Below are positions 10,385 through 63,993 of a DNA stretch of 64,000 bases, in pieces (the stretch's first letter is position 1; each line of letters opens with the position of its first letter). The stretch comes from a virus. A program made the position numbers and the translations under genes. Where the stretch lies: IMG/VR virus record IMGVR_UViG_3300045988_076504, positions 32,001 to 96,000 of that record. The stretch is one strand, 5' to 3'. Below the pieces are notes generated by a model. The model worked only from the letters and a program-made list of their open reading frames with translations, searched no databases and was not told the DNA's origin.

Positions 10385-10385
10385 T

Positions 10386-46252: not shown

Positions 46253-46296
46253 AAAAAAAGAGGGTGGTAGTTATTTGCTAACTATCACCCTGTTTT
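46253..46296. terminator. Bidirectional intrinsic terminator at the convergent module junction
   Basis: 12-bp stem AGGGTGGTAGTT (46261-46272) / AACTATCACCCT (46280-46291) with one G-U pair. It is flanked by A8 upstream (a U-tract for the - strand) and GTTTT downstream. It overlaps the last codons of the - strand gene ending at 46271. Confidence 0.7.
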
Positions 46297-46771
46297 CGTA
46301 TATACGATCAAACTCTTCGATAGTTGGAGCATAGTCGTCTTCTGGTACCGACGATCTATCAACTCCAAATATTTGCATAGAAGAATTTAGGAGACGATTG
46401 TTCAGGTCGTCATCATCGAGTCCCCAAAATTGCAAAACACGGGTTGCTCGATTTCCTGTAGGTACTCTTCCTTTAAACAAATATCTTGAAAAGCTATCGA
46501 AAAGTTGAAGTGTATATACCGTATATGGTTTATTGTTTACTCTTATATGTTTTACAGAACGTAGCGATTTTTGTTCTCGGATTTTCATCCATCTAATCTT
46601 ACTTTCTCTTGTATCGACAGTATCATCATACATTAAGAATAAACAATATTCTAAGCTGGGTCTGTTTTGATCGTATATATACGCATCGACAAACCCAGCT
46701 TGTTTTGTAATATCATCCTTAGTTATTGTATCAACCGCGAAAGGAATGATACATTTTATCTGTGTAGACAT
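46271..46771 (-). CDS. Hypothetical protein
   Basis: Intact 166-aa ORF under the standard code. TAA stop. Confidence 0.75.
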   Translation of the reverse strand: MSTQIKCIIPFAVDTITKDDITKQAGFVDAYIYDQNRPSLEYCLFLMYDDTVDTRESKIRWMKIREQKSLRSVKHIRVNNKPYTVYTLQLFDSFSRYLFKGRVPTGNRATRVLQFWGLDDDDLNNRLLNSSMQIFGVDRSSVPEDDYAPTIEEFDRIYENRVIVSK

Positions 46772-46776
46772 AAGAT

Positions 46777-47751
46777 TCAGAGATTCAAATATTCTATACC
46801 GTTGTTTTCATAATAACCGCGAGTATGAGTCCAGTCACCTCTATTTCTATACCATACTATGTCAAACATAGCAGATTCAATGTCATCGAGACGAGATTCA
46901 AGTTGTTCCGGAACAAACTCAAATACCCTCACCTCGTTATCAGACACTGTATCAATAGCAATTATGTAGACCCCAAATGTCCACCCTTTACTATCCTGGT
47001 GTAGTTCGTTTTGTATGTACCATTCTGCTGCCAGTTGATAAAACATAAACTGTCTGAAATAGTCATATTGCTCAACACTTTTTTCAAAATTGTGTATATG
47101 CACAGTTGTTTTTAAATCCATTATTGTACATTCTTTCTTTTCAATATCAAACTTAACACTGTCAAGAAGAGATTTACATTGCACAACACCATTCATAGCT
47201 CTGTATGTCCAGTTTATATGAAATTCATGATGTGCATCAGGATCATCTAACAAAGGTTTTGCTGCCACATGTTTATCTATATTCTGCTTAATAGACCATA
47301 ACAACTTCATATCGTATTGTGTGATATATGTGTGTTCTGTATCTTTAAGGGATTTGATATAAGAATTCAACGTAGAGGCTATTTCCTTTGCTTCTGAGAG
47401 CATTTTAGCTTCAGACTTACCAACTATACTATATACCTTCTTATAAGCATCTAGAAGGGCTAAATCAGGCTCTATTTCAGTAGTGCTGACCAACTCTTGA
47501 CAGAATTTCTCCTGTTGCTGAGATTTAGGTTTCTGCATACCTGAAACTCGATAATGTTTTTTAAACTCGTCTGGTTGCAAAAGCCACATATGAATCATGG
47601 TTCCTTTGCTCATAGCTCGCGATTCTTCGTCTGGAATTTCACCAGACATCTTTTTATAAAAATAGGATGGTCCTCCATAAAGGAGCCATCCTATCGCTGT
47701 ATTGTTTATACGAGATTTATCCTCGTAATAAGGAATTTCAACCGACATCAT
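46777..47751 (-). CDS. PD-(D/E)XK (RecB/Cas4-like) nuclease
   Basis: 324-aa ORF. Has CTIMDLKTT (the D/ExK motif) followed by QYDYFRQFMFYQLAAEWY (QxxxY-like), and GTMIHMWLL upstream. Confidence 0.75.
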   Translation of the reverse strand: MMSVEIPYYEDKSRINNTAIGWLLYGGPSYFYKKMSGEIPDEESRAMSKGTMIHMWLLQPDEFKKHYRVSGMQKPKSQQQEKFCQELVSTTEIEPDLALLDAYKKVYSIVGKSEAKMLSEAKEIASTLNSYIKSLKDTEHTYITQYDMKLLWSIKQNIDKHVAAKPLLDDPDAHHEFHINWTYRAMNGVVQCKSLLDSVKFDIEKKECTIMDLKTTVHIHNFEKSVEQYDYFRQFMFYQLAAEWYIQNELHQDSKGWTFGVYIIAIDTVSDNEVRVFEFVPEQLESRLDDIESAMFDIVWYRNRGDWTHTRGYYENNGIEYLNL

Positions 47752-47980
47752 ATCTCAAATATCCTTTTATTTGTGAACATTTTTCAGAATCCGTATACTC
47801 TGCATTATCTATTATGTCTCTTACTTTTCTGTACAAGTTATGCCATTTATAGTAATGTATAGCTTTGGTTCTTTCTTCTAGCTTATGGTTCAATACTATT
47901 TCAATGATTGTACCAGTCACAACTGACATCAGTATAATACAAGTACAAACAATAATAAGAGTTATTTCTAATTCACTCAT
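47738..47980 (-). CDS. Small membrane protein
   Basis: 80-aa ORF with N-terminal TM segment LIIVCTCIILMSVVTGTII. Its stop overlaps the next gene's start. Confidence 0.6.
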   Translation of the reverse strand: MSELEITLIIVCTCIILMSVVTGTIIEIVLNHKLEERTKAIHYYKWHNLYRKVRDIIDNAEYTDSEKCSQIKGYLRYDVG

Positions 47981-48131
47981 TGCATTCGTCGTATAATAAA
48001 TGATCCAATTCTTGAATTTTACGTATAAGATTCATAGCTGTTTCTGGGTCTCTATTTAATATAGCTGAATAAACCTGTTGTTTAGTGTCATTCAGCTCTT
48101 TCCTTATTCGTCCTTCTTCAAGAATGTCCAT
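47973..48131 (-). CDS. Small hypothetical protein (52 aa)
   Basis: Not in the track because it is under 60 aa. Reads ATG 48131-48129 ... TGA 47975-47973 (MDILEEGRIRKELNDTKQQ...). It is overlap-coupled to both neighbouring genes. Confidence 0.4.
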   Translation of the reverse strand: MDILEEGRIRKELNDTKQQVYSAILNRDPETAMNLIRKIQELDHLLYDECNE

Positions 48132-48504
48132 TGCATTTAATGTCTTTTATCATTTCGTCAACTTGTTTGTGATTTCTCACAAGATAACATCGTTTTTTAC
48201 TTCGATGTTTTTTCAAATAATATTTAAAGAGTTTATATCTTAAAGGAAAAGAATCTCCCATAAGACCTTTACACTCCACAATAAAGTCTTTACCTATAAA
48301 ATCCGGCAAATATGTTATGGGGCGTATTTTTTCTCCTAAATAATCAAATTTTGGTAGTAGTGTAAAATGCTTTGGCTCATATTTAACAGGAATACCTGCT
48401 TCCATAAAAGCTTCATAAGTATAACATTCTAGTTTAGATCTAAAATGTAATCCATACTTATCGACCTTTGTCGCATTTCTCACTCTTCCTTTAGAGGTTC
48501 CCAT
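48118..48504 (-). CDS. DUF1064-like PD-(D/E)XK endonuclease (resolvase-like)
   Basis: FRSKLECYTYEAF ... YLPDFIGKDFIVECKG matches the remembered S-x-x-E ... D-F ... E-x-K pattern of DUF1064 phage nucleases. Confidence 0.65.
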   Translation of the reverse strand: MGTSKGRVRNATKVDKYGLHFRSKLECYTYEAFMEAGIPVKYEPKHFTLLPKFDYLGEKIRPITYLPDFIGKDFIVECKGLMGDSFPLRYKLFKYYLKKHRSKKRCYLVRNHKQVDEMIKDIKCNGHS

Positions 48505-49474
48505 AACGTTGTAATTCTTTATTTAACCATTGTTTTACATCTTCGTAAGAATTATATTCTACCGCATCCGAAATATCTTTTGCTTTAAACTTCTTATTAA
48601 TAAAGAACGCATCAAAATGATATTTTCTACTGTAATCTCTAGCTTTTTTTACTCCTGTAGCATCTCTATCATACAGAATCAATATTGTTTTCCATTTAGT
48701 CTTAAGCTTATCCAATATTTCATCCGGAATAAATGTTGTTTCACTAGACGCAGCAATAGCATCATATCCCATCTCATATAGAGTCATTACATCCTTAAGA
48801 GATTTTGTAATGATGAGAAGATTACCTCCTTCTTGAGGTATTTCAGCAAGCCCCTGAACGTCATAATTTGTCAGATTAGAACGCCATTTAGTATACTTAG
48901 AAGCCAAAGGTCTATAAATCTTAAAATGATCATATACCTTATATGCATACATAGGACAGGTTTCTTTGTAGACTCCTCGGACGGTTCCATTACAAAGAAA
49001 ATACTTAATACTATAAACACGATATCTTTCAAGAGTTTTCAAAGATATATGAAACCTGCTCCAATATTGTAAATCGATGTTACTAAACGGTTGTCTAGCT
49101 ATACCTATTACAGTATTGTGAGCAGGCTCATATGTCTTCTTATAATCAACCCTTTTACTTGTAGGATTCTGCTTTCGTAGAATCCTAAGAAGTTCTTTTT
49201 CTAATTCTTCCTTTGAATGTATATTACAAATAGTTTTTACAAACGTTATTGCATTTCCACCTATTCCATTACCATGGTCTTTAAAAAACAAACGTCCCTC
49301 ATGTCCTACAAAGACTGCAAATGATGGATTTTTATCATCGTTTCGCAAAGGACTATTCATGAGTTTGTTTATTTTAAATTGACCAAGATAATATGAGTAG
49401 ATATCATAATCGTTCAACAGTTCTAATATATCTTGTAGAACTGTGTCCGTAATTGCTTTTTTTGTACTATACAT
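48491..49474 (-). CDS. DNA primase (Toprim domain)
   Basis: 327 aa. Segment LLIITKSLKDVMTLYEMGYDAIAASSETT...ILILYDRDATGVKKA shows a Toprim-like E ... DxD pattern. N-terminal region NPSFAVF..FKDHGNGIGGNAITFV. Confidence 0.8.
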   Translation of the reverse strand: MYSTKKAITDTVLQDILELLNDYDIYSYYLGQFKINKLMNSPLRNDDKNPSFAVFVGHEGRLFFKDHGNGIGGNAITFVKTICNIHSKEELEKELLRILRKQNPTSKRVDYKKTYEPAHNTVIGIARQPFSNIDLQYWSRFHISLKTLERYRVYSIKYFLCNGTVRGVYKETCPMYAYKVYDHFKIYRPLASKYTKWRSNLTNYDVQGLAEIPQEGGNLLIITKSLKDVMTLYEMGYDAIAASSETTFIPDEILDKLKTKWKTILILYDRDATGVKKARDYSRKYHFDAFFINKKFKAKDISDAVEYNSYEDVKQWLNKELQRYGNL

Positions 49475-49530
49475 GACTTAAAAGTTCTTAGTTAGTAGTA
49501 AGAATGAGAGGACTCGAACCTCTTGATTAT

Positions 49531-49602
49531 CCATATTGACAAGATTCGAACTTGCATACGTCAGCTTAATAGCTGATGCCTTACCTGTCGAGCCACAATA
49601 TT
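49531..49602 (-). ncRNA. tRNA-like element with a non-canonical anticodon loop
   Basis: The - strand sequence folds as a 72-nt cloverleaf. Acceptor AATATTG/CAATATG has a 1-72 mismatch. D arm is TG-GCT-CGACAGGTAA-GGC. T arm is GCAAG-TTCGAAT-CTTGT. The anticodon hairpin is TCAGC-TATTAA-GCTGA, giving a 6-nt loop, or an 8-nt loop CTATTAAG if the closing C-G pair opens. No standard 7-nt loop is possible. Confidence 0.4.
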
Positions 49603-49828
49603 GTATATATAAACATTCTTCCCCTGATATAACCACATGCATCAGAACACATCCAAGATACGCTTGGAAACAGGGCTAGACTTACATCGATTAGAAAGCC
49701 TGTGTGTTACGTTGCTCCTCACGTCGACTTTATAGAGCTTCCTATGGAGTGGTAGGAGGTTACGATCCTCCCAAAGTTCATATTTACCACTCTTAGTTGA
49801 CTGGAGTCAACACTCCACCAGATCTGCA

Positions 49829-50443
49829 TTAGAAGGGCAGATCATCCTTTTTCTCTTCTACAATAGTATTGTCCGGGGTACTGTGTACATCATTTTCTGA
49901 TACAGCAAGCGGATCGACAGACTTTTCATCGTCTACCTTGAATTCTGGTCTGACAGTTTTGTCACGACCTGTTAATACTATTTGAGTTTCTTTTACGTCC
50001 ATTGGTTCTACAAATGTACCATATGCTGATACACGAATAAAACCTTTGTTATCGTACGTTGTTTTAAGACGTAGAAGCTTCTTTCCTCCAATAACTGAAT
50101 CAAGCTTAGATTTAACCCAATTTATCATGTCAGAGAATGTATTAAGTTCTACATCTTCGATAGAGTCGAAATAACATTTGAGAATCTGAAGCATTCGTCC
50201 AAACTGCTGATTATCACGACGTTGTAGATCTTCGTCAGTTTTAATCCACTGGTTCTTCTCGTTCTTCCACTCTGTGAGAGAAGCTGTTGCTCCATTAGCA
50301 TCCTCAAATGTTATCTCCAAGTAATCACGACCGGTTGGAGATTTCATGACATTTACTTCTTTAAGAGTTACATTGTCATTAATTCCGGCATTCATATATT
50401 TATTTGATGAACTTTCAAATACGGCTGTTTTAGTACTAAACAT
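49829..50443 (-). CDS. Single-stranded DNA-binding protein
   Basis: 204 aa. The acidic C-terminus ends ...EEKKDDLPF, matching the bacterial SSB tip motif DDDIPF. Sits in the replication module. Confidence 0.65.
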   Translation of the reverse strand: MFSTKTAVFESSSNKYMNAGINDNVTLKEVNVMKSPTGRDYLEITFEDANGATASLTEWKNEKNQWIKTDEDLQRRDNQQFGRMLQILKCYFDSIEDVELNTFSDMINWVKSKLDSVIGGKKLLRLKTTYDNKGFIRVSAYGTFVEPMDVKETQIVLTGRDKTVRPEFKVDDEKSVDPLAVSENDVHSTPDNTIVEEKKDDLPF

Positions 50444-50451
50444 ATCTTCTA

Positions 50452-51201
50452 TTAGTTTTCTGATTTATAAATTCTGTCCCAATAAGTTGTGATAGTTCCA
50501 TCTTCATTACCAGTAGCAATGATGATGTCTTTACCTCTCAAGTGAGGTGCTCTAGCTTCTTTGATGGTTCCATCTCCACCTTTGAAGCTTATATGAGTCT
50601 CGTTACCTTTTCTATAAACATATCCTACAGCATCAGCTTCACCACATACAATAGAACCAAGTTTTCCAACAAGGTCTAGTGCCATTTGACTAAGCTCTTC
50701 GCCATTCTGTTCTATTTGAACATCTTTAACATGTCCAATCAGAACAAACTCGTCACAAAGACTTTTAAACATATCTAAAACTTTGCGTACAGCTTGTCTT
50801 AGATACATATATCCAGAACCGTTTGGCAAAGTGCGTACATCGTCTCCTTTGTAGTTCTTGCCCATTGGTGTTTGGCAATATAAAGTCTTCGCATACGACA
50901 AACACATCTCCTCTAATCGAGTAGCGTTGTCTATAGTAATACGTCTATAAAAATTATGTCCGGCTTCTGAGTTTTTAGCTCGGATAGCTTGTGCAATTTC
51001 TCCTAAATCTTTAACACTTCTAGCTTGTACAGCCATAGCGTCTATAAACTGGGACCCACCTTCCAAATCTATAATTAGATTACTAGAAAGTTGTGCTAAT
51101 GCACTAGTCTTTCCTGCTTTGGGACGACCGTACAAGATTAAAAATTTCGGATTAGTTGAAACTGCTGGTATTGGTTGTGTAGGTAATATTAAACCGCTCA
51201 T
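50452..51201 (-). CDS. AAA_24/Sak4-like RecA-fold ATPase
   Basis: Walker A ILYGRPKAGKTS followed by IIDLEGG. 249 aa, typical of phage AAA_24 ATPases. Confidence 0.75.
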   Translation of the reverse strand: MSGLILPTQPIPAVSTNPKFLILYGRPKAGKTSALAQLSSNLIIDLEGGSQFIDAMAVQARSVKDLGEIAQAIRAKNSEAGHNFYRRITIDNATRLEEMCLSYAKTLYCQTPMGKNYKGDDVRTLPNGSGYMYLRQAVRKVLDMFKSLCDEFVLIGHVKDVQIEQNGEELSQMALDLVGKLGSIVCGEADAVGYVYRKGNETHISFKGGDGTIKEARAPHLRGKDIIIATGNEDGTITTYWDRIYKSEN

Positions 51202-51240
51202 GTATCTATGTATCTTATTTGTTAGTTCGTTTGTTTACAA

Positions 51241-51696
51241 TTACGCTGCATGCTTAATATCGATGTAAATATCGATGATGCGCTTACGAGTATCCTCAGA
51301 AAGAAGATCGTAATAAGCCTTTGTAAAGTTGTTAAGAGGTATCAAATCATAACCGATCTGAATCTCGTCAGAGAACATCTTTACTGGCGTTCCGTCGGAA
51401 AGCTTGAAGTCATAAGAAGGCTTCTCACGCTTGTAATCATAAATAAACTTAATAGCATCGAAAATGTCTCCATAATCGATACTGTCATATGTATACGTTT
51501 TCTTCGGCTTGCGAGCGATATCAATGTTAATATTAATATTCTTTGCACGCTTCGGAGTCTCCTCAAAGTCTGCAAACCATGGATTATTCTTCTTTATATT
51601 AGAAGATATAATGTCACTAAGAATCTCAGAATAAGTGTTACTGGGATTAATATTCATCTTTGCAGTATTGTCGATCTTAAATGTATACTTTTTCAT
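51241..51696 (-). CDS. Hypothetical protein
   Basis: Intact 151-aa ORF with a TAA stop. The overlapping + strand ORF 51250-51720 is judged a shadow. Confidence 0.65.
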   Translation of the reverse strand: MKKYTFKIDNTAKMNINPSNTYSEILSDIISSNIKKNNPWFADFEETPKRAKNININIDIARKPKKTYTYDSIDYGDIFDAIKFIYDYKREKPSYDFKLSDGTPVKMFSDEIQIGYDLIPLNNFTKAYYDLLSEDTRKRIIDIYIDIKHAA

Positions 51697-51716
51697 AATT
51701 TTCAGCCTTTAAATTG

Positions 51717-52667
51717 TTAATTATTATCTGATACAACTTCAGACTCTATTAGGTTGTTAAAAGCAAGGTCGTTTTCAAATTCGAGAATACAAGGTTTACC
51801 GGCATCTCTATTTTTCAAGATGTGAATATAAACCTTGTTACAAGTAGGTAAACGATTGGGACCGTACTCTTGTATACCTAATATCTCAGGTCTGTGTATA
51901 ACAAGCACATAATCAGATGCTTGAAATATTGAATCAGACGATGATAAATCGCTTCTCATCGGATAATGTGAAGCAGGGTTGTTAATCCTTTCAGGCTCTT
52001 CAATTCTTCTATTCATCTGTGATAATTGTATTACAGATGTCAATGGTAGTTTTTTAGTTCTAATAAAAACTTCTTGTAAAGCACTTAAAGTTTCTATAGC
52101 ACTACCAATACGTTTAGTCAACAATGTATGATCGTACATGATCACAAAATGTTTATTTTGACCTTTAACGTATTTATTATAAAAGTATTGAATTGTAGTA
52201 TCTATTTGTTCTGGTGTACCAGGATCATCTACGAAGTAGATAGGGTAATTCCTGATTTGATTGGAAACATTAATGACTTGTTCGAATGTAGTGTCATCAA
52301 GGTCCTCTTGAGAACTATACAAATAAGAAGTCGTTTTCCGTAACTTATTAGAAAGCGTTCTTCCGATCTGCCTAAATCCAACCATCTCTAATGAGAACAC
52401 TAAAACAATGATATTTGCTTTAGGATTAATATCAATTAAATCAGTTGCGATAAGGTTAGCAAATGAACTCTTACCGCTTCCAGAAATACCGGCAATTGTA
52501 TATACACAATTTGGTTCAATACCGCCCATACAACACATATTCAACTTCTTCCATCTTGTAGCCAATGAATTTATATCGTGGTTCTTACGAGCCGTAATAT
52601 AGTTGACAGCTTCATCTGTAACTACAGAAATAGGTCGAATCTTTAGGTTAGAATAATTCTGTTCCAT
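51717..52667 (-). CDS. DnaB-family replicative helicase (C-terminal ATPase domain only)
   Basis: Walker A GISGSGKSS, FSLEM, DHTLL (Walker B region) and LSQMNR (compare the DnaB LSQLNR motif). Confidence 0.85.
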   Translation of the reverse strand: MEQNYSNLKIRPISVVTDEAVNYITARKNHDINSLATRWKKLNMCCMGGIEPNCVYTIAGISGSGKSSFANLIATDLIDINPKANIIVLVFSLEMVGFRQIGRTLSNKLRKTTSYLYSSQEDLDDTTFEQVINVSNQIRNYPIYFVDDPGTPEQIDTTIQYFYNKYVKGQNKHFVIMYDHTLLTKRIGSAIETLSALQEVFIRTKKLPLTSVIQLSQMNRRIEEPERINNPASHYPMRSDLSSSDSIFQASDYVLVIHRPEILGIQEYGPNRLPTCNKVYIHILKNRDAGKPCILEFENDLAFNNLIESEVVSDNN

Positions 52668-53217
52668 AACTATGTTGTATGTTTTGCTCGGTATTGTTCA
52701 TTTCTTCGTCTGAGGCTTCCCATTGTCTATCTTGCAACCACCGCCACATTGTTTTCATATAACCCATACTTCCACTTTTCATCTTTTTATCGATTTCAAA
52801 CTGTAAGCATTTGTTAATATGTTCACACATGGCGTTATTACCTCCCGTAAGTATATTATAAAGGTTGCGACATTTGTTTTTATTTGTCCTTAAGAAAGCT
52901 TTACTTCCGTCAGAACGTAAGACATATATAGGATACATTTCATAAAACAAGTCAAATTGGTCTTTAGGAGGTTCCATAAAGACTTTAAGTTTATGACTTG
53001 CTTCATATAGTATAGATTTACTTCTCTCCATCGAAGTAACCAAACCCTTGTCGATTAAGTATAGTATTTCGTCGTCACGCATAAGGCTGACTAACTTGCG
53101 AACGTCTTGATCATATGTACTTTGATTCTTATTCAATACCATACTAAGGAATACTAACTGATTTAAATTGATTTTTTCTGGAAGTTCCAGAAGTTTAGTA
53201 TCTAATTCCACTATCAT
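52648..53217 (-). CDS. Hypothetical replication-module protein
   Basis: Intact 189-aa ORF between the polymerase and the helicase. Overlaps the helicase start. Confidence 0.65.
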   Translation of the reverse strand: MIVELDTKLLELPEKINLNQLVFLSMVLNKNQSTYDQDVRKLVSLMRDDEILYLIDKGLVTSMERSKSILYEASHKLKVFMEPPKDQFDLFYEMYPIYVLRSDGSKAFLRTNKNKCRNLYNILTGGNNAMCEHINKCLQFEIDKKMKSGSMGYMKTMWRWLQDRQWEASDEEMNNTEQNIQHSYGTELF

Positions 53218-53233
53218 CTCTTATACTCTTTGG

Positions 53234-55141
53234 TTAACAAGATTGGAATAAATCTAGCTGTCTACATTCCAGCTGATTTACTATTTTTCTTGCCTCACTA
53301 ATATAGTAAGGGTAGTTAATTTTTCTTTTTTCCACCGGTTTGTCATCCAGTTTGTTTAGAATTGTAACACCGCTTTTCTTCAACAAGTTCGAATACTTAA
53401 ATGGTGTTTTAGATTCATCAACTGTGTACAGATAACAACCGTCTGTACTGGCATACCAACGATTTATACGTTGAATATATTTATCATTATACTCAACTTT
53501 AAATTTCTTATCAACACGCTGTGACATTAGAAATTTATAAATGTCGGTACAGTTTTTGACAGAATCCTCTATAGGAATGTTGTACACAAAGTAGTTTATA
53601 ACAGATTCTGGGATAATGGTCGGTGCTAACCCTTTACCCAATACAGGCTCTGTTATAAACATACCTTTTTTTTCTATCAGTTTTGGATCTCTAGATTGAG
53701 AGAATCCGTCAATAACACCAAAATAATCATTGACAGCGAACTGATAAAACGCTTCATAGCTATCTGCTTCGAAAGAGAGTTTTGTTAATTGCTCAAGTTT
53801 TGCTACCGATTCCATTATAGCATCTTTGTACGCCTTTTTAGCAATAAACATCACACCGTCTGTGTTTACTTGTACAATCTCACAAGAATGCTCCAGAAGT
53901 ATATCTGCAAGCATTAGTAGAATTAATTGCCCGTTTATTCTAATCTTAAACACACTAAATGGATCGTACATCCAACTAGTCTCTTGCTGCATTTTTCCTG
54001 TGACAGAATTAAGAACAAGCTTTAGCGCTAGATTCTTATGTTTCTGTCCGCTATGCTTGGCTTGTATTCTCTCATGATAAATCTGAGTATATACATCCAG
54101 GCCTGCTTTACCTAAGTGCCTAGGAAACCACCCGTAGCGCACAATGAAGGACGGATACATAGAAGCAACATCAAGGTGCCCTAAGTATTCATCTTCTTTA
54201 GGAACGTATATTCTAGGGTCGTTTAGCGAATGTATTCCGCCAACACCTATCGAATACCGTACATTTGAGACAACAAACTTGTTCTCGTAGTTTTTTTCTC
54301 CAGGCCTTTTTATAGAAGATACTACTTGTTTTTTCATATCTTCAAGGGCTTCCTGGAATTTTGGATTTTTGTATTTTATAAATGGTAATATAACATCTTT
54401 CAAAGGAATGTTGTCCATTGGAGATCGCATTTGTTCTAGTTGTCTTTTGTTTATGTGTAATTCTTCACAAACTTTTTTAGCTAGCAATGTTTCTCCAAAC
54501 TTAACACTATCCATTGAAAGTGCATTAAATCCATATTCTTTCTCTATAAACAATCGTAAATCAATGTCTCCTTTTTCGACTAGCTGTGCAAATAATGCAC
54601 AAGTTGATTCCACATCGTTTATATTGTAACTGATCATTTCGTCAATTTTATCTTTCGGTAAAAATGAATTAAAATCACCATTGTATTCTTGCACGTTGTT
54701 GTACTTCATAGTGATTTGCATGGATTTTAATCCTACTCTGAGCTTAGAACTAAACATCATTGTAAGTAAATCCATAGATTCGAAATAATTAGCGTATTTC
54801 CATCGTTTAATCCTATCGATATTTCCGTCTTCCGATATTATCAACGTTTGTGAAAGATTAAATAGCGATTTTGTTATATCATATATGCTTTTATGCAACA
54901 TAATGTCAACATAATCTATGATATAATTTATAATAACATCATCATAATGTTTGTTATTATAACCACATAAGAGATAGTTTTTATTAGTAAAGAAAGCTAC
55001 TAATTGTTCTATCTGATTTATCCTTTCGGATATTTCAAACTTATATAGTTTCTCGTTATCTGTATCTTTTACAACACAATGAAAAACATTAGGAAAAACT
55101 TCAATATCGTAGATCATAACTGTTTTGTTGTGTATTAGCAT
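53234..55141 (-). CDS. Family B DNA polymerase
   Basis: Exo I YDIEVFPN, Exo II GYNNKHYDD, Exo III YNINDVEST. Polymerase motif A DVASMYPS, motif B KLVLNSVTGK, motif C VNTDGV. Confidence 0.9.
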   Translation of the reverse strand: MLIHNKTVMIYDIEVFPNVFHCVVKDTDNEKLYKFEISERINQIEQLVAFFTNKNYLLCGYNNKHYDDVIINYIIDYVDIMLHKSIYDITKSLFNLSQTLIISEDGNIDRIKRWKYANYFESMDLLTMMFSSKLRVGLKSMQITMKYNNVQEYNGDFNSFLPKDKIDEMISYNINDVESTCALFAQLVEKGDIDLRLFIEKEYGFNALSMDSVKFGETLLAKKVCEELHINKRQLEQMRSPMDNIPLKDVILPFIKYKNPKFQEALEDMKKQVVSSIKRPGEKNYENKFVVSNVRYSIGVGGIHSLNDPRIYVPKEDEYLGHLDVASMYPSFIVRYGWFPRHLGKAGLDVYTQIYHERIQAKHSGQKHKNLALKLVLNSVTGKMQQETSWMYDPFSVFKIRINGQLILLMLADILLEHSCEIVQVNTDGVMFIAKKAYKDAIMESVAKLEQLTKLSFEADSYEAFYQFAVNDYFGVIDGFSQSRDPKLIEKKGMFITEPVLGKGLAPTIIPESVINYFVYNIPIEDSVKNCTDIYKFLMSQRVDKKFKVEYNDKYIQRINRWYASTDGCYLYTVDESKTPFKYSNLLKKSGVTILNKLDDKPVEKRKINYPYYISEARKIVNQLECRQLDLFQSC

Positions 55142-55168
55142 GATTCTATGATTCTTATTAATAATGTT

Positions 55169-55262: not shown

Positions 55263-55288
55263 TTCCAACCGCGAGATTGGCTTAGGTG

Positions 55289-56308: not shown

Positions 56309-56863
56309 TTATGCTATCTTATAGCGATTTATATCATCTATATCAGATGTCTCAAGCTCTGCAGTATCGTTAAATTTAGCAATATCTGCGTCAAGCTTGT
56401 TTATTTCGAGTTGCAGCTTCTTCTTAATAGAAGCAATCTTCGCTGATGTGAAAATCTCAATCTTTCCTGTACCTTTTATACCAGCTTTAGCCTTAGTAGC
56501 AGGATTAATTGTACTCTTCTTGAGAATCTCCTCCCAATGAGCAAGTTGCTCCTTCTTCTCGCATGCAGCATAAATTGTATAATAATGTGTCTTCTTAGCC
56601 TCTTCAAAATCGAACTTCTTGATACCATTATTAATGGCATTCAACATAAGTTTAATCTTAATGAGAGTATCTGACATTTGTGTAATCTCATTATACAACT
56701 GTGTTAGGTCAAAACCTGAACCCATTCCGGCAGTTTTTGCCTTCTTGCTCATTACGTTCTCTGAACGTATAATACGCCAATATTTGGTTTTAGTCTTACA
56801 AATGTTATCACGAGCAATAATAATATCCTTTGAGCTTAATTTCATTGATTTGTTCTTATTCAT
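56309..56863 (-). CDS. Hypothetical protein
   Basis: Intact 184-aa ORF with a TAA stop. Confidence 0.7.
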   Translation of the reverse strand: MNKNKSMKLSSKDIIIARDNICKTKTKYWRIIRSENVMSKKAKTAGMGSGFDLTQLYNEITQMSDTLIKIKLMLNAINNGIKKFDFEEAKKTHYYTIYAACEKKEQLAHWEEILKKSTINPATKAKAGIKGTGKIEIFTSAKIASIKKKLQLEINKLDADIAKFNDTAELETSDIDDINRYKIA

Positions 56864-56966
56864 ACTAGATTTGATTTAAATTAAACATGTTAATATGAAT
56901 TTGAAAAATCGTTTACCTAGCGCCATGTGTGGACTTGCACCACCTGTTATCTATAATACAACATGG

Positions 56967-56998
56967 CAAAACCCTCACTATTCTCACGAACCGTGAGG
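56967..56998 (-). terminator. Possible intrinsic terminator downstream of tRNA-Leu
   Basis: - strand CCTCAC ... GTGAGG stem, with an alternative CTCAC-GGTTC-GTGAG hairpin, followed by GTTTTG. Confidence 0.4.
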
Positions 56999-57054
56999 TA
57001 AATAAAATAATAAAATGAAAACAAAATTAAAACACTCTTACGATTAAAATTTTG

Positions 57055-57138
57055 TACCTCCAGCGGGACTCGAACCCGCACGTCACATGGGACAACAGAT
57101 TTTAAGTCTGTAGCGGCTGCCAATTACGCCATGAAGGT
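57055..57138 (-). tRNA. tRNA-Leu (anticodon UAA, reads UUA), class II with long variable arm
   Basis: - strand: ACCTTCA TG GCGT-AATTGGCAG-CCGC T ACAGA-CTTAAAA-TCTGT TGTCCCATGTGACGT GCGGG-TTCGAGT-CCCGC TGGAGGT A. The acceptor is 7 bp with one G-U pair. CCA is not encoded. Confidence 0.85.
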
Positions 57139-57233
57139 AACGAAGCTGGGATATTAACATGTCCCAACTTTAAGTGAAATATATAGTAATCAATCAAACT
57201 TGTAATTAAACTCCTGTTTAACCTACAAAGAGA

Positions 57234-57761
57234 CTACTCAAAGAAATCCACACCTTTGACTCCAACTCTGATTTCGCACAGAGGATCGCCTGATCCCGGC
57301 AAGCGTGCGATTTTAATACCATCCTTGGATTCAATCTTAATGTGTTTATCTATTTTATCACTAACAGAGAAACCCGTTGTATTTAACGGGCTTTTGACTC
57401 CATACCTTGCGGCATCAAATAAACGATCTACTACAGTGTCATATTCTTCTCGCATTACAGCATTACGTATTACCTCCTCACTCAAGCCTTTGAGTATCAC
57501 ATCGTTGATATTACGTTCCTGTCCTGCAAGAGCTGCAACTGTTTTAATAGCGAAGTCTGCAAAAGAAATAGTCTTTTCATCTCCTATAAGATGATTCCAC
57601 CAAAGACACCCTGTCTTTCCAAATGTGATAGAACCATCTTCATTAATGGATACGCGACTATATAATTCTTTCTTAGACTCGTCAATCAAATTCCGTCTGA
57701 TTGCCGGATCCAAGAATAGAATTTGTATTTGCAGTTTACTTCTCTGACTAATCTTTTTCAT
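57234..57761 (-). CDS. Hypothetical early protein (terminates with TAG)
   Basis: Intact 175-aa ORF. The stop codon is TAG (+ strand CTA at 57234-57236). Codon usage is GC-richer than most of the window. Confidence 0.75.
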   Translation of the reverse strand: MKKISQRSKLQIQILFLDPAIRRNLIDESKKELYSRVSINEDGSITFGKTGCLWWNHLIGDEKTISFADFAIKTVAALAGQERNINDVILKGLSEEVIRNAVMREEYDTVVDRLFDAARYGVKSPLNTTGFSVSDKIDKHIKIESKDGIKIARLPGSGDPLCEIRVGVKGVDFFE

Positions 57762-58369
57762 TAATCAACAGTTACATTTACATGCACCTCGCTCTTCTTC
57801 TGGTCGAGCTGGCGATAATAATCGTTTACTCCGGATATATTCTTGTCGAATGTATCCTGAATCATCTTACGCATCTTCTCAAGATCCTTCGTGAGCTCGT
57901 CGATACGACGCATCTCAGTGGCGTTAGCAGGATTCAATGCCTCAGCAAGCTTCTTTGCATTTGCAAAATAAGTTACTGTAAAATCCTTCTTGTTAAGAGC
58001 GTCTGTCACAGTGTCTGTAGTGACATCCTTTGTGAACTTCTCACTGTCGATTGGACAACGAACCTCTACAGATTCGCCTGAATCATCGACACGACCCCTG
58101 TTGATAACCACAACATTGGTTCCGTCTACATCCTTATCCAAATCGAGACCGATAATGTCGATAGGTACTATCTTATATCGGAATGGTGTGCGGTTTGTTA
58201 CTAATCCGTGATTCTCATTTGCATCGCGGAGCTTCTTGTTAAAATCAAGGTCACATGGTACCTTAATAGCCTTAAAGATTCGCTTACCGTAAAGCGATCC
58301 AAAATTGCTGATATTTACTCTGTTGTCTTCTACAAGTCTTACATTGATGTTTAATGTTTCGTTATTCAT
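57761..58369 (-). CDS. Hypothetical early protein
   Basis: Intact 202-aa ORF. Its TAA overlaps the downstream ATG by 1 nt. GC-richer codon usage. Confidence 0.75.
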   Translation of the reverse strand: MNNETLNINVRLVEDNRVNISNFGSLYGKRIFKAIKVPCDLDFNKKLRDANENHGLVTNRTPFRYKIVPIDIIGLDLDKDVDGTNVVVINRGRVDDSGESVEVRCPIDSEKFTKDVTTDTVTDALNKKDFTVTYFANAKKLAEALNPANATEMRRIDELTKDLEKMRKMIQDTFDKNISGVNDYYRQLDQKKSEVHVNVTVD

Positions 58370-60370
58370 AATAATTTATCCTTTTTGATATCGTGTTTGA
58401 TTACACCCACGATAAATTATGTAAAAATTCTCCTCTCAGCTCAGAGAAAGCTATAAATGCATCGTTTGATGCTACTCAAGATTTATTTTATACAGTGTCA
58501 AGTTTCTTTATGACCGCTTTATAAGCGTAAGTCACTATATGTGGATTCCAACGATAGGAATAGCTTAGCCTCATATAGATATATACGACAGACCCGGATC
58601 TCTCACGGAAAGCTTTGAATGACCGGTGTACATCATGTACTAAATCTTATAAGTAAAACTAAATTTTTTGAAATAAAGTTTATATTCATCATCCGTCCAA
58701 CGCTCTAATGTTTCTGGAATCGTGGAGGGTTCATTGGCTGAGATGATGAATATTACCCACAAAAATAAAAAGTGAGAATATCTTCCTTGTGCATTTCCTA
58801 AAACTAAGAAAACATTCTCCGATGCTGTACAGTCTTACGATACTGTTTAGGCGCATCTGCCACTATTCTAAGTACTGTGTAGAATAATCAATACACGTTT
58901 CATTATCGAACAGTCTAGCCTTCAGGGGGTATCTACGACTCTACGGCGGTTATTCGATGGAAAACCTTGCTAAAAACCTTCTTCTATTTATAGTGCACGA
59001 ATATTGGGGATTTCAGCCCCGTACATATGTATATGTTATCACCCACATATTATTTTCACGCCCTACAGAGACAGTGTAGACCGTGGTGGGTTAAGTCTCC
59101 CACAGGCATACGCTTTACGCACTGCTAGTATGATTTCTCATTTTAATAATATGCTGCCTACTATATTTTCTGTACTGATTCTACCTTTCGCTTGACGCAT
59201 ACACTTGCGGATGTATACTTTAGGCTGGTTATCATAACGGTTGGCACTCGAACTTTCAGACCTCGTTACTCCTTATTTACAACATAAGTTTTTCACTATC
59301 TGAGGACATCGATTTTTGTTAAACATGTTACTTTAATACTTAATATGTAGTTTTGTTCCTACACCATAATATCAAAATTTTTCATATACATACTTATGCT
59401 CATAATATATGCACTATTATTATGTACAATAACTATCATTGTTCCTTTCGGTTCTTTTTCTCTGTATAGAGAATAATAGATATTATATATTATATATGAA
59501 CATGTGTATATTATTATTTGATATTTTTATTGGCATTGAGGTAATTGATTACAACTGGAATGCTGCTCTTATTTACTCAATGTATGTTTTTAGAAAGCCC
59601 CTCAAAAACATTAAAACGGCTGGTTTGGCTGTCAAGTAGCCACCTATGATGTCATATTTCATATAATACTAAGATTGCTAATGTCTTGTACTATAATCCT
59701 GTCTTCAGTCCTATGAACGCCGACTCTAGAGGCTGTGCAGCTGCCATACGCACCTAGTCATTTTACTTTTATATACCGCATAAACGACCAAAGCCTGGCG
59801 GTCTTATCTCATTATAAGCGAATAGTTTTCTCAGCCTCAACTCTTTACTGCATCCCTGGACCCTTCTTTGGCTCAAAAGGCTGCTGAATCGAACAGCACA
59901 GATTTATCCCTGGACACTACGTTTACTGCGTAGCTTGGTCTAACTGACAATAATATGATCTGACTCACATATTACCTACCAAGTCCTTCTCTATTCTATC
60001 TTATACCCTAATAAAATTTTCATCCCTTCATACACAGTTTGGACCTGTGGAACACTAGATTAAGCAATGATGTATCACATAGAGGTTGGAAGTCTATGTG
60101 TTCAGCACTTGTATACGGTTACCAATGTAATCCACATCAAAATTACAAAGAGTATTAGCTACCGGTTCATTTTGCTCTTCTTGAGACTTACGCGTCTTCC
60201 TAAGTCGTTATTCGCCAGACGGTTCTCAATAACGCTGTTGGGGTTGATACAACGCTCTCCCCACTTACATATTACTTTTCACATAATATGCATTTCATCC
60301 TACCTTTTGAGTTATCTCGCCTTTTGAGAAGGTTAACATATTCTCGGATCAAGTTTATTTCGTACACGAG
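58370..60370. other. 2.0-kb ORF-free, hairpin-dense region (candidate large ncRNA(s) and/or origin/regulatory region)
   Basis: No ORF over 86 aa in any frame, and stops of all three kinds are frequent, so TAG read-through does not rescue it. Examples of structure: a 12-bp helix 58682-58693/58742-58753, 7-bp stems 58864-58870/58880-58886 and 60076-60082/60094-60100, and the repeat ATCCCTGGAC at 59852 and 59906. An AT-rich core lies at about 59300-59560. Confidence 0.6.
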
Positions 60371-60823
60371 CTAATGAGACTCGTTATATGTACTGACGGA
60401 GGTGTCTTCGACTGAATGATCGTAATCATTCTCTCCCGGAGTGAATATCGTTTCGCAGTCTATGTCTTCAGGGCTAGCTTTCCTTACAACATATTTAGCT
60501 TGAGAATCACTGCAGGTTTGCTCCTCACGAACCTTTGATGAAGCAATATACAATATAGGTACATACAACGTATCATGTACTGCATATGGTACTTTCACCA
60601 CTTTTACATTCTCTTTATGGTTGCACACTTGTGATGTTGTCTCAGGATTGACAGGATCACGTTTCATATGACTCAGCTGGAGATCATATGGCAATTGCCC
60701 TATTACAGGCATCACTGGTGCAGCTTGTATAGTTACACCAGGATCTGCTCTATTGTTTATTCCTACTAATAGGCCGTATAGTAGTAACATTGAGCATGAA
60801 ATAATTGTTGTTAACTTTTTCAT
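60371..60823 (-). CDS. Secreted/membrane-anchored hypothetical protein (terminates with TAG)
   Basis: 150 aa. Signal-peptide-like N-terminus MKKLTTIISCSMLLLYGLLVG. The stop codon is TAG (+ strand CTA at 60371-60373). Confidence 0.7.
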   Translation of the reverse strand: MKKLTTIISCSMLLLYGLLVGINNRADPGVTIQAAPVMPVIGQLPYDLQLSHMKRDPVNPETTSQVCNHKENVKVVKVPYAVHDTLYVPILYIASSKVREEQTCSDSQAKYVVRKASPEDIDCETIFTPGENDYDHSVEDTSVSTYNESH

Positions 60824-61179
60824 TTTGATAATGTGTTAAGCGATAGCTTCTTTCTTTTCATGGTCTACTATTACAGTAATACCATTATGTCTAGGTACCA
60901 TCATCGATACGTCAAGATTATGTGTATAACCTCGGGCGTCTAAATTGTTGATGACTTTTCTAAGCTTTTTCTACTACCGATATGAATTTCTGACATTTTG
61001 ATAATGTTTTTAATTGTTTTAGGAGTTGCGAATGCGTCTTCCAAATTTTGGAATTCCACCTTCATCTAGTTCGACATGCAAAAGATTCTTTATAGATGTA
61101 GCTACTCGTCTACAAGAATCTTTTACATCGTCGACAACTAGTTGAATATGTCTTTTTTTACGAATCTTTCGTAACTCCT

Positions 61180-62613
61180 TTATGCGTTTTTTGAGTCTTC
61201 TTTTTTGGCTTCAGCAGCAGCTTTTGCTTCTGCCTCACGCATCTCCTTAATCTCCTCTGTAGTATACGCTACAAGATCGTGGAGATTAATCTCGGCATAG
61301 GTCTCATCCCGGTCAGCTAACGGCTTGAACATGTTACATATAATGCCAGCATGCTGTACAATATTGTAATCCATGTTCTTAAATCCGCCACGAGCAGAGT
61401 TCGGATAATACTGATCCTTAATGCGGCCATAAATCTTAATGGCTCCAGGATCCTTATCCTTGTCCATCTTCTCAATGAGAGAGCTGACGATCTCTGGATC
61501 CGGATTCGTTACATAGCCCAAGATGTCCTTATAGTGCTGGATAGAGTTCTTGTACTTCTCAGCTACATCCTTATAGTCTTTTGCTTTCTTATCAAGAGCG
61601 TCAAGATTCTTTTGCTCGTCAGCAATAGTATTGTTAGCTACAAGATAAATGATCGCCTTAACGGCGTCAGCAATTGACTGTTCGTCCCATACAGGTTGTC
61701 CTGTCTCAGGGTCTGTAAGAGACTTTCTGAGAATACAGAATGAAGAAATCGGACTCTTGTCGAAAGACGCCATGGTGATAAGACCACGTCCGATACCGTG
61801 AAGAAGAAATGTAGGCTTGACGTATGAGAATGCATCCATCAACCACTGGTCAACAGTATAATCGTCATACTTCAGCTTTGCTTCAGCAGAGTTCTCCGCT
61901 TTATCTGCCATTGTCATGCGATAGGTACGCATGAAATCAACAACACTTACAAGTGTGTTCTTGATATTGGTCTTCTTAGGACCGACAATCAACAGATACT
62001 GAAGAGCCTTTTTGAGATCGTCCTCACTCATAGCTGCCACCTTTACAGGGTCAAGCTCTGGCTGCTCGTCCTCAATCGCATGTTCTTCTGCAAGCTTCTC
62101 CTTTGCCGCCTTGGACACCTTTACCTCTTTGCTGTCAACAGTCACATTACCGTTCTCGTCAACCGGCAACGCCTTAACGTTCGGCAATGTGATACCCATA
62201 TCCTTTGCAGCAACAAGAAGCTGAGGATACATTGTATGGTTAAGAACTGCTGAGAAGGTAGAATTACCATATACTGCCTCATCTGCAATTGCTGCGATAA
62301 CGCCGGCTGCAACGATAGCATTCGCTCCCTCTCTTACCTCTAGCGAGAACTTGCGTTCTGCATCTGGGTCTTTGCGAAAGATATCGTCAGCAAGACACAA
62401 CAGATCTACGCGATGATTTGCATCGAGAGACGACTGGGTACCACCTACAAGATTCTTTGCGTTTATCTGTGAAGGATTTACTTGATCCTTCTTAGGAGGT
62501 TCTACTGTTGTCTCGACTGTTTCTACTACAGCTGCTTCTGCTGGAGCTGCTGCTGGTTTATTTACTTTAGTTGTCTTCTTTTGAGTTTTGTTATTTTTAG
62601 TTTTAGCTGCCAT
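61180..62613 (-). CDS. Hypothetical protein with Lys/Ala-rich termini
   Basis: Intact 477-aa ORF with GC-richer, host-like codon usage. N-terminus MAAKTKNNKTQKKTTKVNKPAAAPAEAA and C-terminus EAEAKAAAEAKKEDSKNA. Confidence 0.8.
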   Translation of the reverse strand: MAAKTKNNKTQKKTTKVNKPAAAPAEAAVVETVETTVEPPKKDQVNPSQINAKNLVGGTQSSLDANHRVDLLCLADDIFRKDPDAERKFSLEVREGANAIVAAGVIAAIADEAVYGNSTFSAVLNHTMYPQLLVAAKDMGITLPNVKALPVDENGNVTVDSKEVKVSKAAKEKLAEEHAIEDEQPELDPVKVAAMSEDDLKKALQYLLIVGPKKTNIKNTLVSVVDFMRTYRMTMADKAENSAEAKLKYDDYTVDQWLMDAFSYVKPTFLLHGIGRGLITMASFDKSPISSFCILRKSLTDPETGQPVWDEQSIADAVKAIIYLVANNTIADEQKNLDALDKKAKDYKDVAEKYKNSIQHYKDILGYVTNPDPEIVSSLIEKMDKDKDPGAIKIYGRIKDQYYPNSARGGFKNMDYNIVQHAGIICNMFKPLADRDETYAEINLHDLVAYTTEEIKEMREAEAKAAAEAKKEDSKNA

Positions 62614-62684
62614 AATTTTGATAATTATTTAAAACGTTAATATATGTTAATTTATAGTTGATGGTCTTGGAATCGTTTTGAAAT

Positions 62685-63056
62685 TCAAGACGAGTCAAAA
62701 ATAAATGGAACTAATCCATCACCATAAAGAGGTGAGAAATTTTGTTCACCACTAAGAGTTGTAGATTCGGTGGTACAATAATGTACAACCGGTGTTTCAC
62801 AAGTAGGAACTACTTCTTCGGTGTTACTAGGTAACAGGAATTGAGCAGTGGGCATACTGCTGTTAAGTGTCAGATCCTGTGAAACACATTCTACGTTACT
62901 CTCCTTATTGTTTCCAATATTGGCTGCAATTGTACCGCCAATAAACCCGCTCATCATTGAGATAAGCAGAATCCAGAATAATTTGTTACTCTTGTTGTAT
63001 CGAGCAAGCAAGAATATAACAACTATTCCTACGAAGAATGTTAGAAGATTTAACAT
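62685..63056 (-). CDS. Membrane protein (two predicted TM segments)
   Basis: 123 aa. Segments LLTFFVGIVVIFLLA and LFWILLISMMSGFIGGTIAANIG. Its start overlaps the sigma-factor stop by 7 nt. Confidence 0.7.
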   Translation of the reverse strand: MLNLLTFFVGIVVIFLLARYNKSNKLFWILLISMMSGFIGGTIAANIGNNKESNVECVSQDLTLNSSMPTAQFLLPSNTEEVVPTCETPVVHYCTTESTTLSGEQNFSPLYGDGLVPFIFDSS

Positions 63057-63610
63057 AGTTTCAGTTGTTTTTTTAGGTTATTGCGAACTCTGTGTAGACA
63101 TGACTTTATAGTTCCCACTGGCACATTTATCGCTTTACTTATTTGAGATACTGTCATACCATTTTCATAGTATAGTTTGACAATTCTTTTGCTATGTTCT
63201 GGTAACTGATCGAATATTTCGACCATATTATCGTATGTCAGAGTAGTATTTTCATCTACAGTACTGGTAACATCTGATAATTGTATACCTGATTCCTTGT
63301 CATCTATTGATATTGCTTTGTTTTTCAACGACCGCAAATAATCAATGGCAGTATTTTTTGTCATTATTCTCAACCATCCTCCGAATGAAGAATAGTCTGT
63401 GAATTTCGAGAGTTTTTGATATATTTTCAAGAATACAATGTTCGACAAGTCTTTAGCCTCATCATAATCATTTATATACTGATATAAAAGATTTATTACA
63501 AAATCTTTATATTTATAATATATCAAATTGAATGCCGATTCTTTACCGGCTTTGGCATCTTTGATTATCCCAATTTCTTCTGGAGTAATTTTGGGTGTTT
63601 TCATAATCAA
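63050..63610 (-). CDS. ECF-type sigma-70 family sigma factor
   Basis: Region 2-like: DEAKDLSNIVFLKIYQKL...FGGWLRIMTKNTAIDYLR. Region 4-like: LPEHSKRIVKLYYENGMTVSQISKAINVPVGTIKSCLHRVRNNLKK. Confidence 0.8.
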   Translation of the reverse strand: MIMKTPKITPEEIGIIKDAKAGKESAFNLIYYKYKDFVINLLYQYINDYDEAKDLSNIVFLKIYQKLSKFTDYSSFGGWLRIMTKNTAIDYLRSLKNKAISIDDKESGIQLSDVTSTVDENTTLTYDNMVEIFDQLPEHSKRIVKLYYENGMTVSQISKAINVPVGTIKSCLHRVRNNLKKQLKLC

Positions 63611-63615
63611 ACAAT

Positions 63616-63993
63616 TTAAAAAGGTAACTCACTTAAGACGATATCTGACAATTCTTTGTTGATATTATCTTTTAGATTTGTAAATATTTGCACATTCTCA
63701 ATGTCTGTCAAGTTGTCTACTTTATTCAACATACTTGCAGCTATACGCAATTTTACGCGAGTTGTAGATTCAGAATCTAGACCAAGATTGAGTATAATAT
63801 TTCTATTTACCCAGTTTAACCATTCTTTGAGAGATTTATTTGACAAACATCGTTGTCTACTAAACGGAAAAATGCAGACAGAGCTGTCGTAGATAAAATA
63901 TCTATACGCCCATGCTACTTTACGTACCGTATTATATTTCTCTCTTAATGTGTCTTGGTCTAGATAACGTATGAAAGGACCATCAAACAACAT
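63616..63993 (-). CDS. Hypothetical protein
   Basis: Intact 125-aa ORF with ATG at 63993-63991 and a TAA stop. Confidence 0.6.
   Translation of the reverse strand: MLFDGPFIRYLDQDTLREKYNTVRKVAWAYRYFIYDSSVCIFPFSRQRCLSNKSLKEWLNWVNRNIILNLGLDSESTTRVKLRIAASMLNKVDNLTDIENVQIFTNLKDNINKELSDIVLSELPF

Follow-up and report, generated by a model that had tools for sequence, protein, structure and literature searches.

Block-wise use of two genetic codes in a crAss-like phage genome, with a predicted large structured RNA in its early block

The DNA described here is a stretch of 64,000 nucleotides, positions 32,001 to 96,000 of the IMG/VR virus record IMGVR_UViG_3300045988_076504 (the whole stretch is called the window below, and positions are counted from its first letter), and its genes appear to be written for two genetic codes that are arranged in blocks. 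The late block (1-46215, + strand), with structural, lysis and virion-RNA-polymerase-like genes, holds 21 open reading frames (ORFs) which are continuous only when TAG is taken as a sense codon. The early block (46271-63993, - strand), with genes of replication, recombination and transcription, also holds 21 ORFs and not a single in-frame TAG. It is considered very probable that the genome follows a block-wise arrangement of codes 11 and 15, in which the early genes would be read by the host and the late genes, with TAG as glutamine, once TAG is suppressed. Both this layout and its explanation by a switch in time are already known for crAss-like phages, and the observation is a correct rediscovery. 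A by-product of the analysis was a gene-free locus of the early block which is predicted to encode a large structured RNA.

TAG as a sense codon in the late block

Under the standard code the + strand is broken into short ORFs up to 46.2 kb. With TAG as sense the same strand carries 21 contiguous ORFs, among them those of 4275, 2246 and 1734 amino acids, with 140 in-frame TAGs in 15,182 codons (9.2 per 1000), and the stop codons are TAA (15) and TGA (6) and no other. The other two stops were tried in the same manner, the measure being the summed length of ORFs of at least 100 amino acids on the + strand between positions 1 and 46270. This sum amounts to 8,495 amino acids under code 11 and 15,508 with TAG as sense; TGA as sense brings hardly any gain (8,639). 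TAA as sense gives 10,245, but the non-coding - strand swells at the same time from 592 to 9,195 amino acids. The reading of TAA is therefore uninformative, and full-length coding is restored by TAG only.

The density of TAG among the late genes ranges from 0 to 35 per 1000 codons, and its highest values in the window fall on the lysis cassette (9953-11508, + strand). The GH24 endolysin (9953-10384) and the ORF at 10825-11508 have 35 TAGs per 1000 codons each and the holin (10386-10901) has 12, so that, measured against the mean of the block, the lysis genes are preferentially recoded.

The amino acid can be read from alignments. Among the five TAGs of the endolysin gene one aligns with the invariant glutamine of the TQNQFDAL motif, and a second with a position that is glutamine in most solved lysozymes. 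When the late TAGs of the window were compared with the orthologues of three close relatives, they were matched by TAG in 57 cases, by CAA in 26 and by CAG in 7, each of the other codons occurring 8 times or fewer. In the reverse direction, the TAGs of the relatives faced TAG (57), CAA (29) and CAG (25) in the window, and distant relatives give the same ranking of codons. An exchange of TAG for CAA requires two substitutions and therefore acts at the level of the amino acid. These alignments indicate that TAG encodes glutamine in the late block.

Absence of in-frame TAG in the early block

The early census took in all ORFs of at least 52 amino acids on the - strand between 46271 and 63993, which together comprise 4,716 codons. 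At the rate of the late block about 43.5 in-frame TAGs would be expected among them, and the probability of finding none is about 1e-19. In the two other frames of the same ORFs TAG occurs 116 and 68 times. Expressed per 1000, the off-frame counts are 24.5 and 18.8 in late genes and 24.6 and 14.4 in early genes; off-frame TAG is thus equally common in both blocks, with no depletion of the trinucleotide as such. As stops the early ORFs use TAA (14), TGA (5) and TAG (2). The first-pass annotation of the window, made from its letters and ORFs, had stated that the - strand genes lack in-frame TAG and that two of them terminate with it at 57234-57236 and 60371-60373, and both coordinates proved exact.

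Functions were assigned with PHROGs to an exonuclease (46777-47751), a Holliday-junction-resolvase-like nuclease (48118-48504), a primase (48491-49474), a Sak4-like annealing protein (50452-51201), a DnaB-like helicase (51717-52667), a family A DNA polymerase (PolA, 53234-55141) and a sigma factor (63050-63610), all on the - strand. The polymerase, helicase, primase, nucleases and sigma factor named in the first-pass annotation are borne out in this way; its label of a single-stranded DNA-binding protein found no support in PHROGs or Pfam. The region is also not made up of protein genes throughout, for it contains a gene resembling transfer RNA (tRNA) at 49531-49602 and the structured-RNA locus at about 58890-60400.

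The pattern continues outside the window. Past the end of the window the scaffold has 16 further early-strand genes, none with an internal TAG and two with TAG as the stop ('...KKP-TAG-T-TAG...' and '...QDGE-TAG' plus 6 codons), which raises the early genes to 37 in total and the TAG-terminated ones to 4. Orthologues of the early genes from about 55 related loci gave 332 alignments and 73,875 codons with one TAG, located at the N-terminal edge of one alignment; TAG stands at the homologous C-terminus in 11 of 268 early orthologues. In the complete genome of the related phage cr131_1 (Cacepaovirus) all TAGs in annotated early coding sequences (CDSs) are at or near the C-terminus, and two early TAG stops are followed at once by another stop (the tandems TAG-TAA and TAG-TGA). 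The early CDSs of its record (NC_055902.1) are annotated through TAG stops, the polymerase for example through TAG to the adjacent TAA; code 15 was evidently applied throughout by the annotators, real stops being read through.

Judged by this conservation, the TAG-free state of the early genes is under long-term selection across the subfamily. The early module had been called standard-code; the absence of internal TAG stands, and the block is better described as compatible with both codes, in line with the published 'dual-coded / soft switch' view.

TAG stop codons at 57234 and 60371

The two TAG stops of the early block in the window are of different standing. The TAG at 57234-57236 (- strand) ends a gene of 175 amino acids (57234-57761), whose conservation reaches as far as cr131_1 and Dulem virus 42, at about 35% identity. 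The position of its stop is kept in four of four close relatives, being TAG in three (L003, L005, L006) and another stop codon in L004, and the homologue in cr131_1 ends in the TAG-TGA tandem. Up to the TAA at 57102-57104, read-through would lengthen the protein by 44 residues (the potential extension, 57102-57233, has 43 codons after the TAG) and would overlap the gene of tRNA-Leu with anticodon UAA (57054-57138, - strand), in agreement with the earlier expectation of more than 30 codons running into this gene. In the close relatives the frames beyond the stop have 4, 5, 31 or 44 codons and their sequence is not conserved. Since the stop position is conserved and the length and sequence downstream are not, the TAG at 57234 reads as a genuine, position-conserved terminator. 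As a side observation, the codon TTA, cognate to tRNA-Leu(UAA), has a frequency of 29.6 per 1000 codons in late genes and 18.9 in early genes, which fits a role of this phage tRNA in supporting late translation.

The TAG at 60371-60373 (- strand) closes a 150-amino-acid ORF (60371-60823) for a signal-peptide protein, and it is not the ancestral stop. At 60422-60424 the window has TAC where four relatives have the TAA stop of the gene, and the ORF is longer by 17 codons, which derive from the conserved sequence of the neighbouring RNA locus. Because the ancestral TAA became TAC in the genome of the window, the ORF runs on to the TAG, and this stop looks like the product of a lineage-specific stop loss and a recent accident. 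Read-through would add 33 residues before the TAA at 60272-60274, in line with the figure of about 33 given earlier. It was considered whether the extended form might be the conserved one, as the peptide after the TAG ('LIREYV..LKR') is shared with gp30 of cr131_1. This was rejected: in four relatives the gene already ends at the earlier TAA, in one a frameshift crosses the region, and the similarity reflects conservation of the RNA element at the nucleotide level.

The proposal that TAG serves as a real stop in the early block thus holds for 57234 and fails, as a maintained feature, for 60371, and in neither gene is the extended form the conserved one. What is added is that TAG stops of the early block can be conserved in position and are sometimes backed by an adjacent second stop.

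Strand and code boundary

Of the two junctions between the blocks, the sequence covered contains the convergent one. Here the + strand ORFs finish at 46215 and the nearest - strand ORF has its end at 46271, and the change of code coincides with the change of coding strand. A hairpin of 13 bp (46261-46291), which overlaps the 3' end of the - strand ORF 46271-46771, is flanked by an A-run upstream and a T-run downstream and can, because of these runs, serve as a predicted bidirectional terminator between the blocks; a terminator had been placed near 46.26 kb at the outset. The further claim that strand boundary and code boundary are the same is correct for this junction only, because in cr131_1 the late strand opens with eight TAG-free genes around a suppressor tRNA and the recoded genes follow this leader, TAG-containing genes being found from position 11439.

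Origin and kinship

The window is identical base for base to part of a scaffold of 100,119 bp from a Peruvian gut metagenome (ENA ERZ5855851, scaffold_42), and a second assembly of 100,075 bp has the same genes. Together with two other stretches of this scaffold (L350 and L353), the window covers 82.5 of its 100.1 kb. On the evidence of DNA polymerase, primase and gene order it represents 64 kb of a crAss-like phage genome of about 100 kb, placed in the Crassvirales close to Suoliviridae/Oafivirinae. Its PolA shares 62-69% identity with those of cr131_1, cr130_1, cr272_1/cr273_1 and the unclassified Dulem virus 42, and 55% and about 51% with the more distant Oafivirinae Bohxovirus and cr7_1. 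The early block is collinear with that of cr131_1, and the Pfam families Crass_capsid and CrAss ring-protein are found in the late region flanking the window.

With the Oafivirinae the genome has in common the collinear early block, the TAG-recoded late block, a gene-free locus of about 2 kb between the same two genes, and a permuted transfer-messenger RNA (tmRNA) and an array of tRNAs and a hammerhead upstream in the early block. [quoted passage not shown] The nearest kin come from IMG/VR, among them the contig 3300045988_082615 with 98% identity in primase.

Suppressor tRNA and the proposed course of infection

A tRNA with the anticodon CUA is present in relatives. In cr131_1 it lies at 9258-9330 on the late strand, among the eight TAG-free genes, and in Dulem virus 42 it stands beside dUTPase, also on the late strand. 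A search anchored on dUTPase found tRNA(CUA) in 24 of 80 related loci, in every case on the late strand and in 14 of the 24 about 100 nt upstream of dUTPase; these best 80 loci represent clades more distant than the closest relatives of the window. In a pattern scan for tRNA(CUA), contigs of these closest relatives were absent among the matches listed. For the genome described here, synteny would place the suppressor in the remaining 17.6 kb of the scaffold (84934-100119 and 1-2379 of its record).

The tRNA-like gene at 49531-49602 (- strand; Rfam 36.6 bits, missed by ARAGORN with default settings) was considered as the missing suppressor. Its anticodon loop is abnormal, with 6 nt (UAUUAA) or 8 nt (CUAUUAAG), and around the gene (49500-49620) lie another acceptor-like pairing (AAGAAUG...CAUUCUU) and another T-arm, which enclose it. 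What relatives carry in this tRNA slot upstream of primase varies: Leu-GAG in L020, Lys-UUU in L021 and nothing in L022 and L023. As a conserved component the gene was rejected.

Other small RNAs of the early strand lie beyond the window. A permuted tmRNA is found about 1 kb after position 64000 (L350 8811-9041; RF04321, 57.5 bits with a gathering score of 47), and its homologues detected by ARAGORN in cr131_1 and Dulem virus 42 are likewise permuted and have tag peptides that finish with ...VDYTHVA. In a phage that suppresses amber codons such a tmRNA could handle ribosomes which read through TAG stops of the host. An array at L350 1980-2890 contains a hammerhead-type core (CUGAUGAG...CGAAAC; E=0.003, under the Rfam threshold) directly 3' of a TAG-terminated gene, a tRNA-Gln(UUG) at 2115-2187 and, at 2819-2887, a paralogous tRNA-like gene with an anticodon loop of only 4 nt (CUUA). 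At the equivalent place relatives have RAGATH-1 hammerheads and tRNAs. In the parts of the genome examined, neither a theta ribozyme nor a release factor nor an aminoacyl-tRNA synthetase was found.

The following course of events is proposed. Because it has no internal TAG, the early block would be readable by the unmodified translation system of the host, and release factor 1 would terminate at the few TAG stops. The late block, which encodes capsid, tail, the virion-RNA-polymerase-like giant proteins, endolysin and holin with about 9 TAGs per 1000 codons, would be translated only once amber suppression is available. The late strand would then deliver the suppressor, a tRNA(CUA) coming, as in the relatives, from a TAG-free leader at its head, after which TAG-containing late mRNAs would become translatable, the lysis genes carrying the most TAGs. 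Once TAG is suppressed, short C-terminal extensions would be gained by the four TAG-terminated early genes. These look like tolerated side products and not functional isoforms, because they are not conserved and some relatives have an immediate second stop. That late genes depend on TAG suppression and early genes are translatable by the host had been proposed from the window alone, and it agrees with glutamine as the late meaning of TAG and with the near absence of TAG from the early orthologues.

Weighing of alternative explanations

Several points weigh against the reading of the two blocks as a switch in time. The major capsid protein gene, on the late strand upstream of window position 1 (L353 2058-3581), is free of TAG inside a TAG-rich block, and the same is true in cr131_1 (27379-29758). 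Avoidance of TAG is therefore not only a matter of early timing and probably tracks something besides, such as how strongly a gene is expressed or how efficiently TAG is decoded. Of the two TAG stops in the window, that at 60371 is a recent accident and not a maintained feature. The window and the 82.5 of 100.1 kb of scaffold covered yielded no tRNA(CUA), and the suppressor of this genome is therefore assumed from synteny. The temporal order goes beyond the reach of sequence alone and is, like the presence of the suppressor, inferred, resting on published proteomics (PMC9523058).

The capsid genes could mean that efficiency, not timing, shapes the pattern: suppression would be present throughout but slow or leaky, TAG would be tolerated where reduced or delayed output is acceptable, and the boundary would mark expression demand. 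The spread of TAG density among late genes agrees with such a view. However, the suppressor tRNA of the relatives lies on the late strand, downstream of its start, and is unlikely to be present at time zero; proteomics of two crAss-like phages found no TAG read-through peptides in the code-11 region (PMC9523058); and the near-total lack of TAG, over a total of 73,875 codons of early genes, is a much sharper exclusion than would follow from a graded effect. This explanation is unlikely, at least as a replacement for timing. A history of modules, in which the replication block was recently acquired from a standard-code phage and sense TAGs have not yet accumulated, would suit the frequent exchange of DNA polymerase types in crAss-like phages that PMC7886860 reports, yet gene order and TAG-free state are shared by every Oafivirinae genus in the sample, even where protein identity falls to about 35-50%, while late genes swap TAG with CAA and CAG freely over the same divergence. 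Sustained purifying selection and not lack of time is therefore indicated, and recent acquisition is given very little credence.

A programmed origin of two protein forms, with TAG-terminated early genes built to give functional C-terminally extended proteins late in infection, is just as improbable. TAG does close four of 37 early genes, beyond which the frame stays open for 6 to 44 codons, and such cases are labelled isoforms by the authors of Mgcod (10.1101/2022.06.29.495998). Against this, close relatives agree neither in the length nor in the sequence of the extension of the 57234 gene, and one of them has a stop other than TAG; the resemblance of the peptide after 60371 is independent of reading frame and belongs to the RNA element, and cr131_1 has two TAG stops with a second stop directly adjacent. 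The least probable explanation, of almost negligible weight, is mutational: if the C-to-T change from CAG to TAG were likelier on one strand, the difference between the blocks would be a neutral by-product of their orientation. The blocks do lie on opposite strands, and GC/AT skew flips its sign at 46 kb, but the skews of the coding strands have the same sign in both blocks, off-frame TAG is equally frequent in late and early genes, and TAG also exchanges with CAA, for which two changes are needed. The switch in time, with the early block kept readable for the host, thus remains the preferred reading.

A predicted large structured RNA in the early block

Between the gene ending at 60371 and the gene at 57761-58369 there are about 2 kb without an ORF under any code; reading TGA or TAA as sense was tried for this stretch, and no ORF appeared. 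Opposite-strand ORFs of about 160 amino acids are annotated in the locus in cr7_1 and Bohxovirus, and these are regarded as spurious, since their tblastn matches hop between frames. In the record of Dulem virus 42 (PP511876.1, code 11) the late genes and this locus are split into many tiny 'hypothetical proteins'.

Covariation within the ORF-free part (58890-60400, - strand) predicts that it encodes a large structured RNA of about 1.5 kb. In five close genomes 80-91% of its columns are invariant, compared with 58-79% in the flanking genes. In every Oafivirinae genome examined the locus keeps its collinearity for about 1.5 kb, even where the homologue of the adjacent 57234 gene is only about 35% identical as protein. 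An alignment of 13 genomes folds better on the early strand and gives a consensus of 144 pairs in 29 helices, in which 91.8% of positions are paired, compared with 36-48% when the partners are slid by 1-3 columns. Changes on both sides were seen in 61 consensus pairs, against 14-23 in the slid controls, and none of 500 shuffles reached the observed values. Many G-U pairs fit the early strand only. A broader set of 22 sequences of the 3' domain aligned with too many gaps for a complete consensus fold, yet of the 23 pairs predicted there 16 have compensatory changes.

The 5' edge of the locus is marked by a hairpin (60335-60366, - strand) with a co-varying stem and a conserved loop of 9 nt, UCUCAUUAG. 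Among the genomes the stem takes the forms ACGAG/CUCGU, AUAGG/CCUAU, GUGGG/CCCAU and UAAGG/CCUUA. The UAG of this loop is the very codon that terminates the extended ORF at 60371.

Known large structured RNAs such as GOLLD, ROOL, OLE and HEARO are shorter than about 1.5 kb. The locus resembles them, as well as group I and II introns, RNase P and tmRNA, in being a long RNA of many helices with covariation, and it is carried by phages, as GOLLD and ROOL often are. It differs from the large RNAs of Rfam in lacking a family match: there was none at E<=1 in the window between 56800 and 61200, and none that was consistent at E<=5 in Rfam 15 for six divergent homologous loci. No description of a large RNA in crAss-like phages was found in the searchable literature.

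A signature 18-mer of the RNA occurs in 65 contigs of IMG/VR, almost all with a length typical of crAss-like phages, and the RNA itself is conserved in at least 65 such contigs and in several ICTV genera. Among 185,579 species genomes the motif scan gave 27 matches, of which 25 are consistent with chance for an 18-mer. The other two are contigs of about 101 kb in GTDB (L355 and L374), binned in metagenome-assembled genomes of Segatella copri; they probably represent crAss-like phages whose genomes were binned together with the host, and they hint at Segatella/Prevotella as the host of the clade to which the window belongs.

That the locus is a real, functional and not yet described class of large RNA is proposed tentatively, with slightly more doubt than confidence. 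The class may be confined to Oafivirinae-like crAss phages, and its transcription may go together with that of the early genes. Because the same block holds the permuted tmRNA, tRNAs and ribozyme-like elements, it could be speculated that the RNA takes part in the takeover of host translation by the phage, including the switch in the reading of UAG; a direct role in the code switch is regarded as quite unlikely.

Relation to published genomes and significance

A crAss-like genome with codes 11 and 15 arranged in blocks, the 'Phage 2' of Ivanova 2014, has reportedly been known for some time. In crAss-like phages the block-wise use of the two codes is described in Yutin 2021 (PMC7886860). Maps of such genomes with replication genes in the standard code and lysis genes preferentially recoded were given by Borges 2021 (10.1101/2021.08.26.457843), where a temporal switch was proposed and 'code change modules' with release factors and aminoacyl-tRNA synthetases were described in recoded gut phages. 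Glutamine as the meaning of TAG, and the lack of recoding in the code-11 region, were confirmed by proteomics in two crAss-like phages (Peters 2022, PMC9523058). According to the Mgcod preprint (Pfennig 2022, 10.1101/2022.06.29.495998) the change of code goes along with the change of strand, the early block is dual-coded, genes that differ only at the stop are 'isoforms', and the suppressor tRNA Sup-CTA lies at the 5' end of the code-15 strand. The same description was given for another Crassvirales genus in a 2026 preprint.

The window shares with these genomes TAG as glutamine only in the late structural and lysis block, a TAG-free replication block, a code change at the strand change, the highest TAG density in lysis genes, and genes that end in the reassigned stop with two possible 'isoforms'. 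A Sup-tRNA(CUA) at the 5' end of the recoded strand is seen in its relatives. There is no difference in kind, the details of its own being the stop loss from TAA to TAC and the lack of a suppressor in the 82.5 kb covered. The refinement that TAG is used as a real stop is likewise covered by the published isoform concept, the only addition being that one such stop is conserved in position. Theta ribozymes, which are similar to that of hepatitis delta virus, adjoin suppressor tRNAs in recoded gut phages (PMC10879173). The early strand here carries tRNAs, a tRNA-like gene, a hammerhead core and a permuted tmRNA, and thus a cluster of translation-related RNAs; its ribozyme core, in contrast to those phages, is of hammerhead type and stays below the Rfam threshold.

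In itself the window is a clean and well-controlled example of a published phenomenon and brings very little that is new. For practice it means that recoded genomes need a block-wise assignment of codes at annotation, as annotation with a single code gives artefacts. The by-product could matter more than the two codes: if the prediction is true, the RNA encoded at 58890-60400 would be one of the largest structured RNAs, ribosomal ones aside, known from phages.

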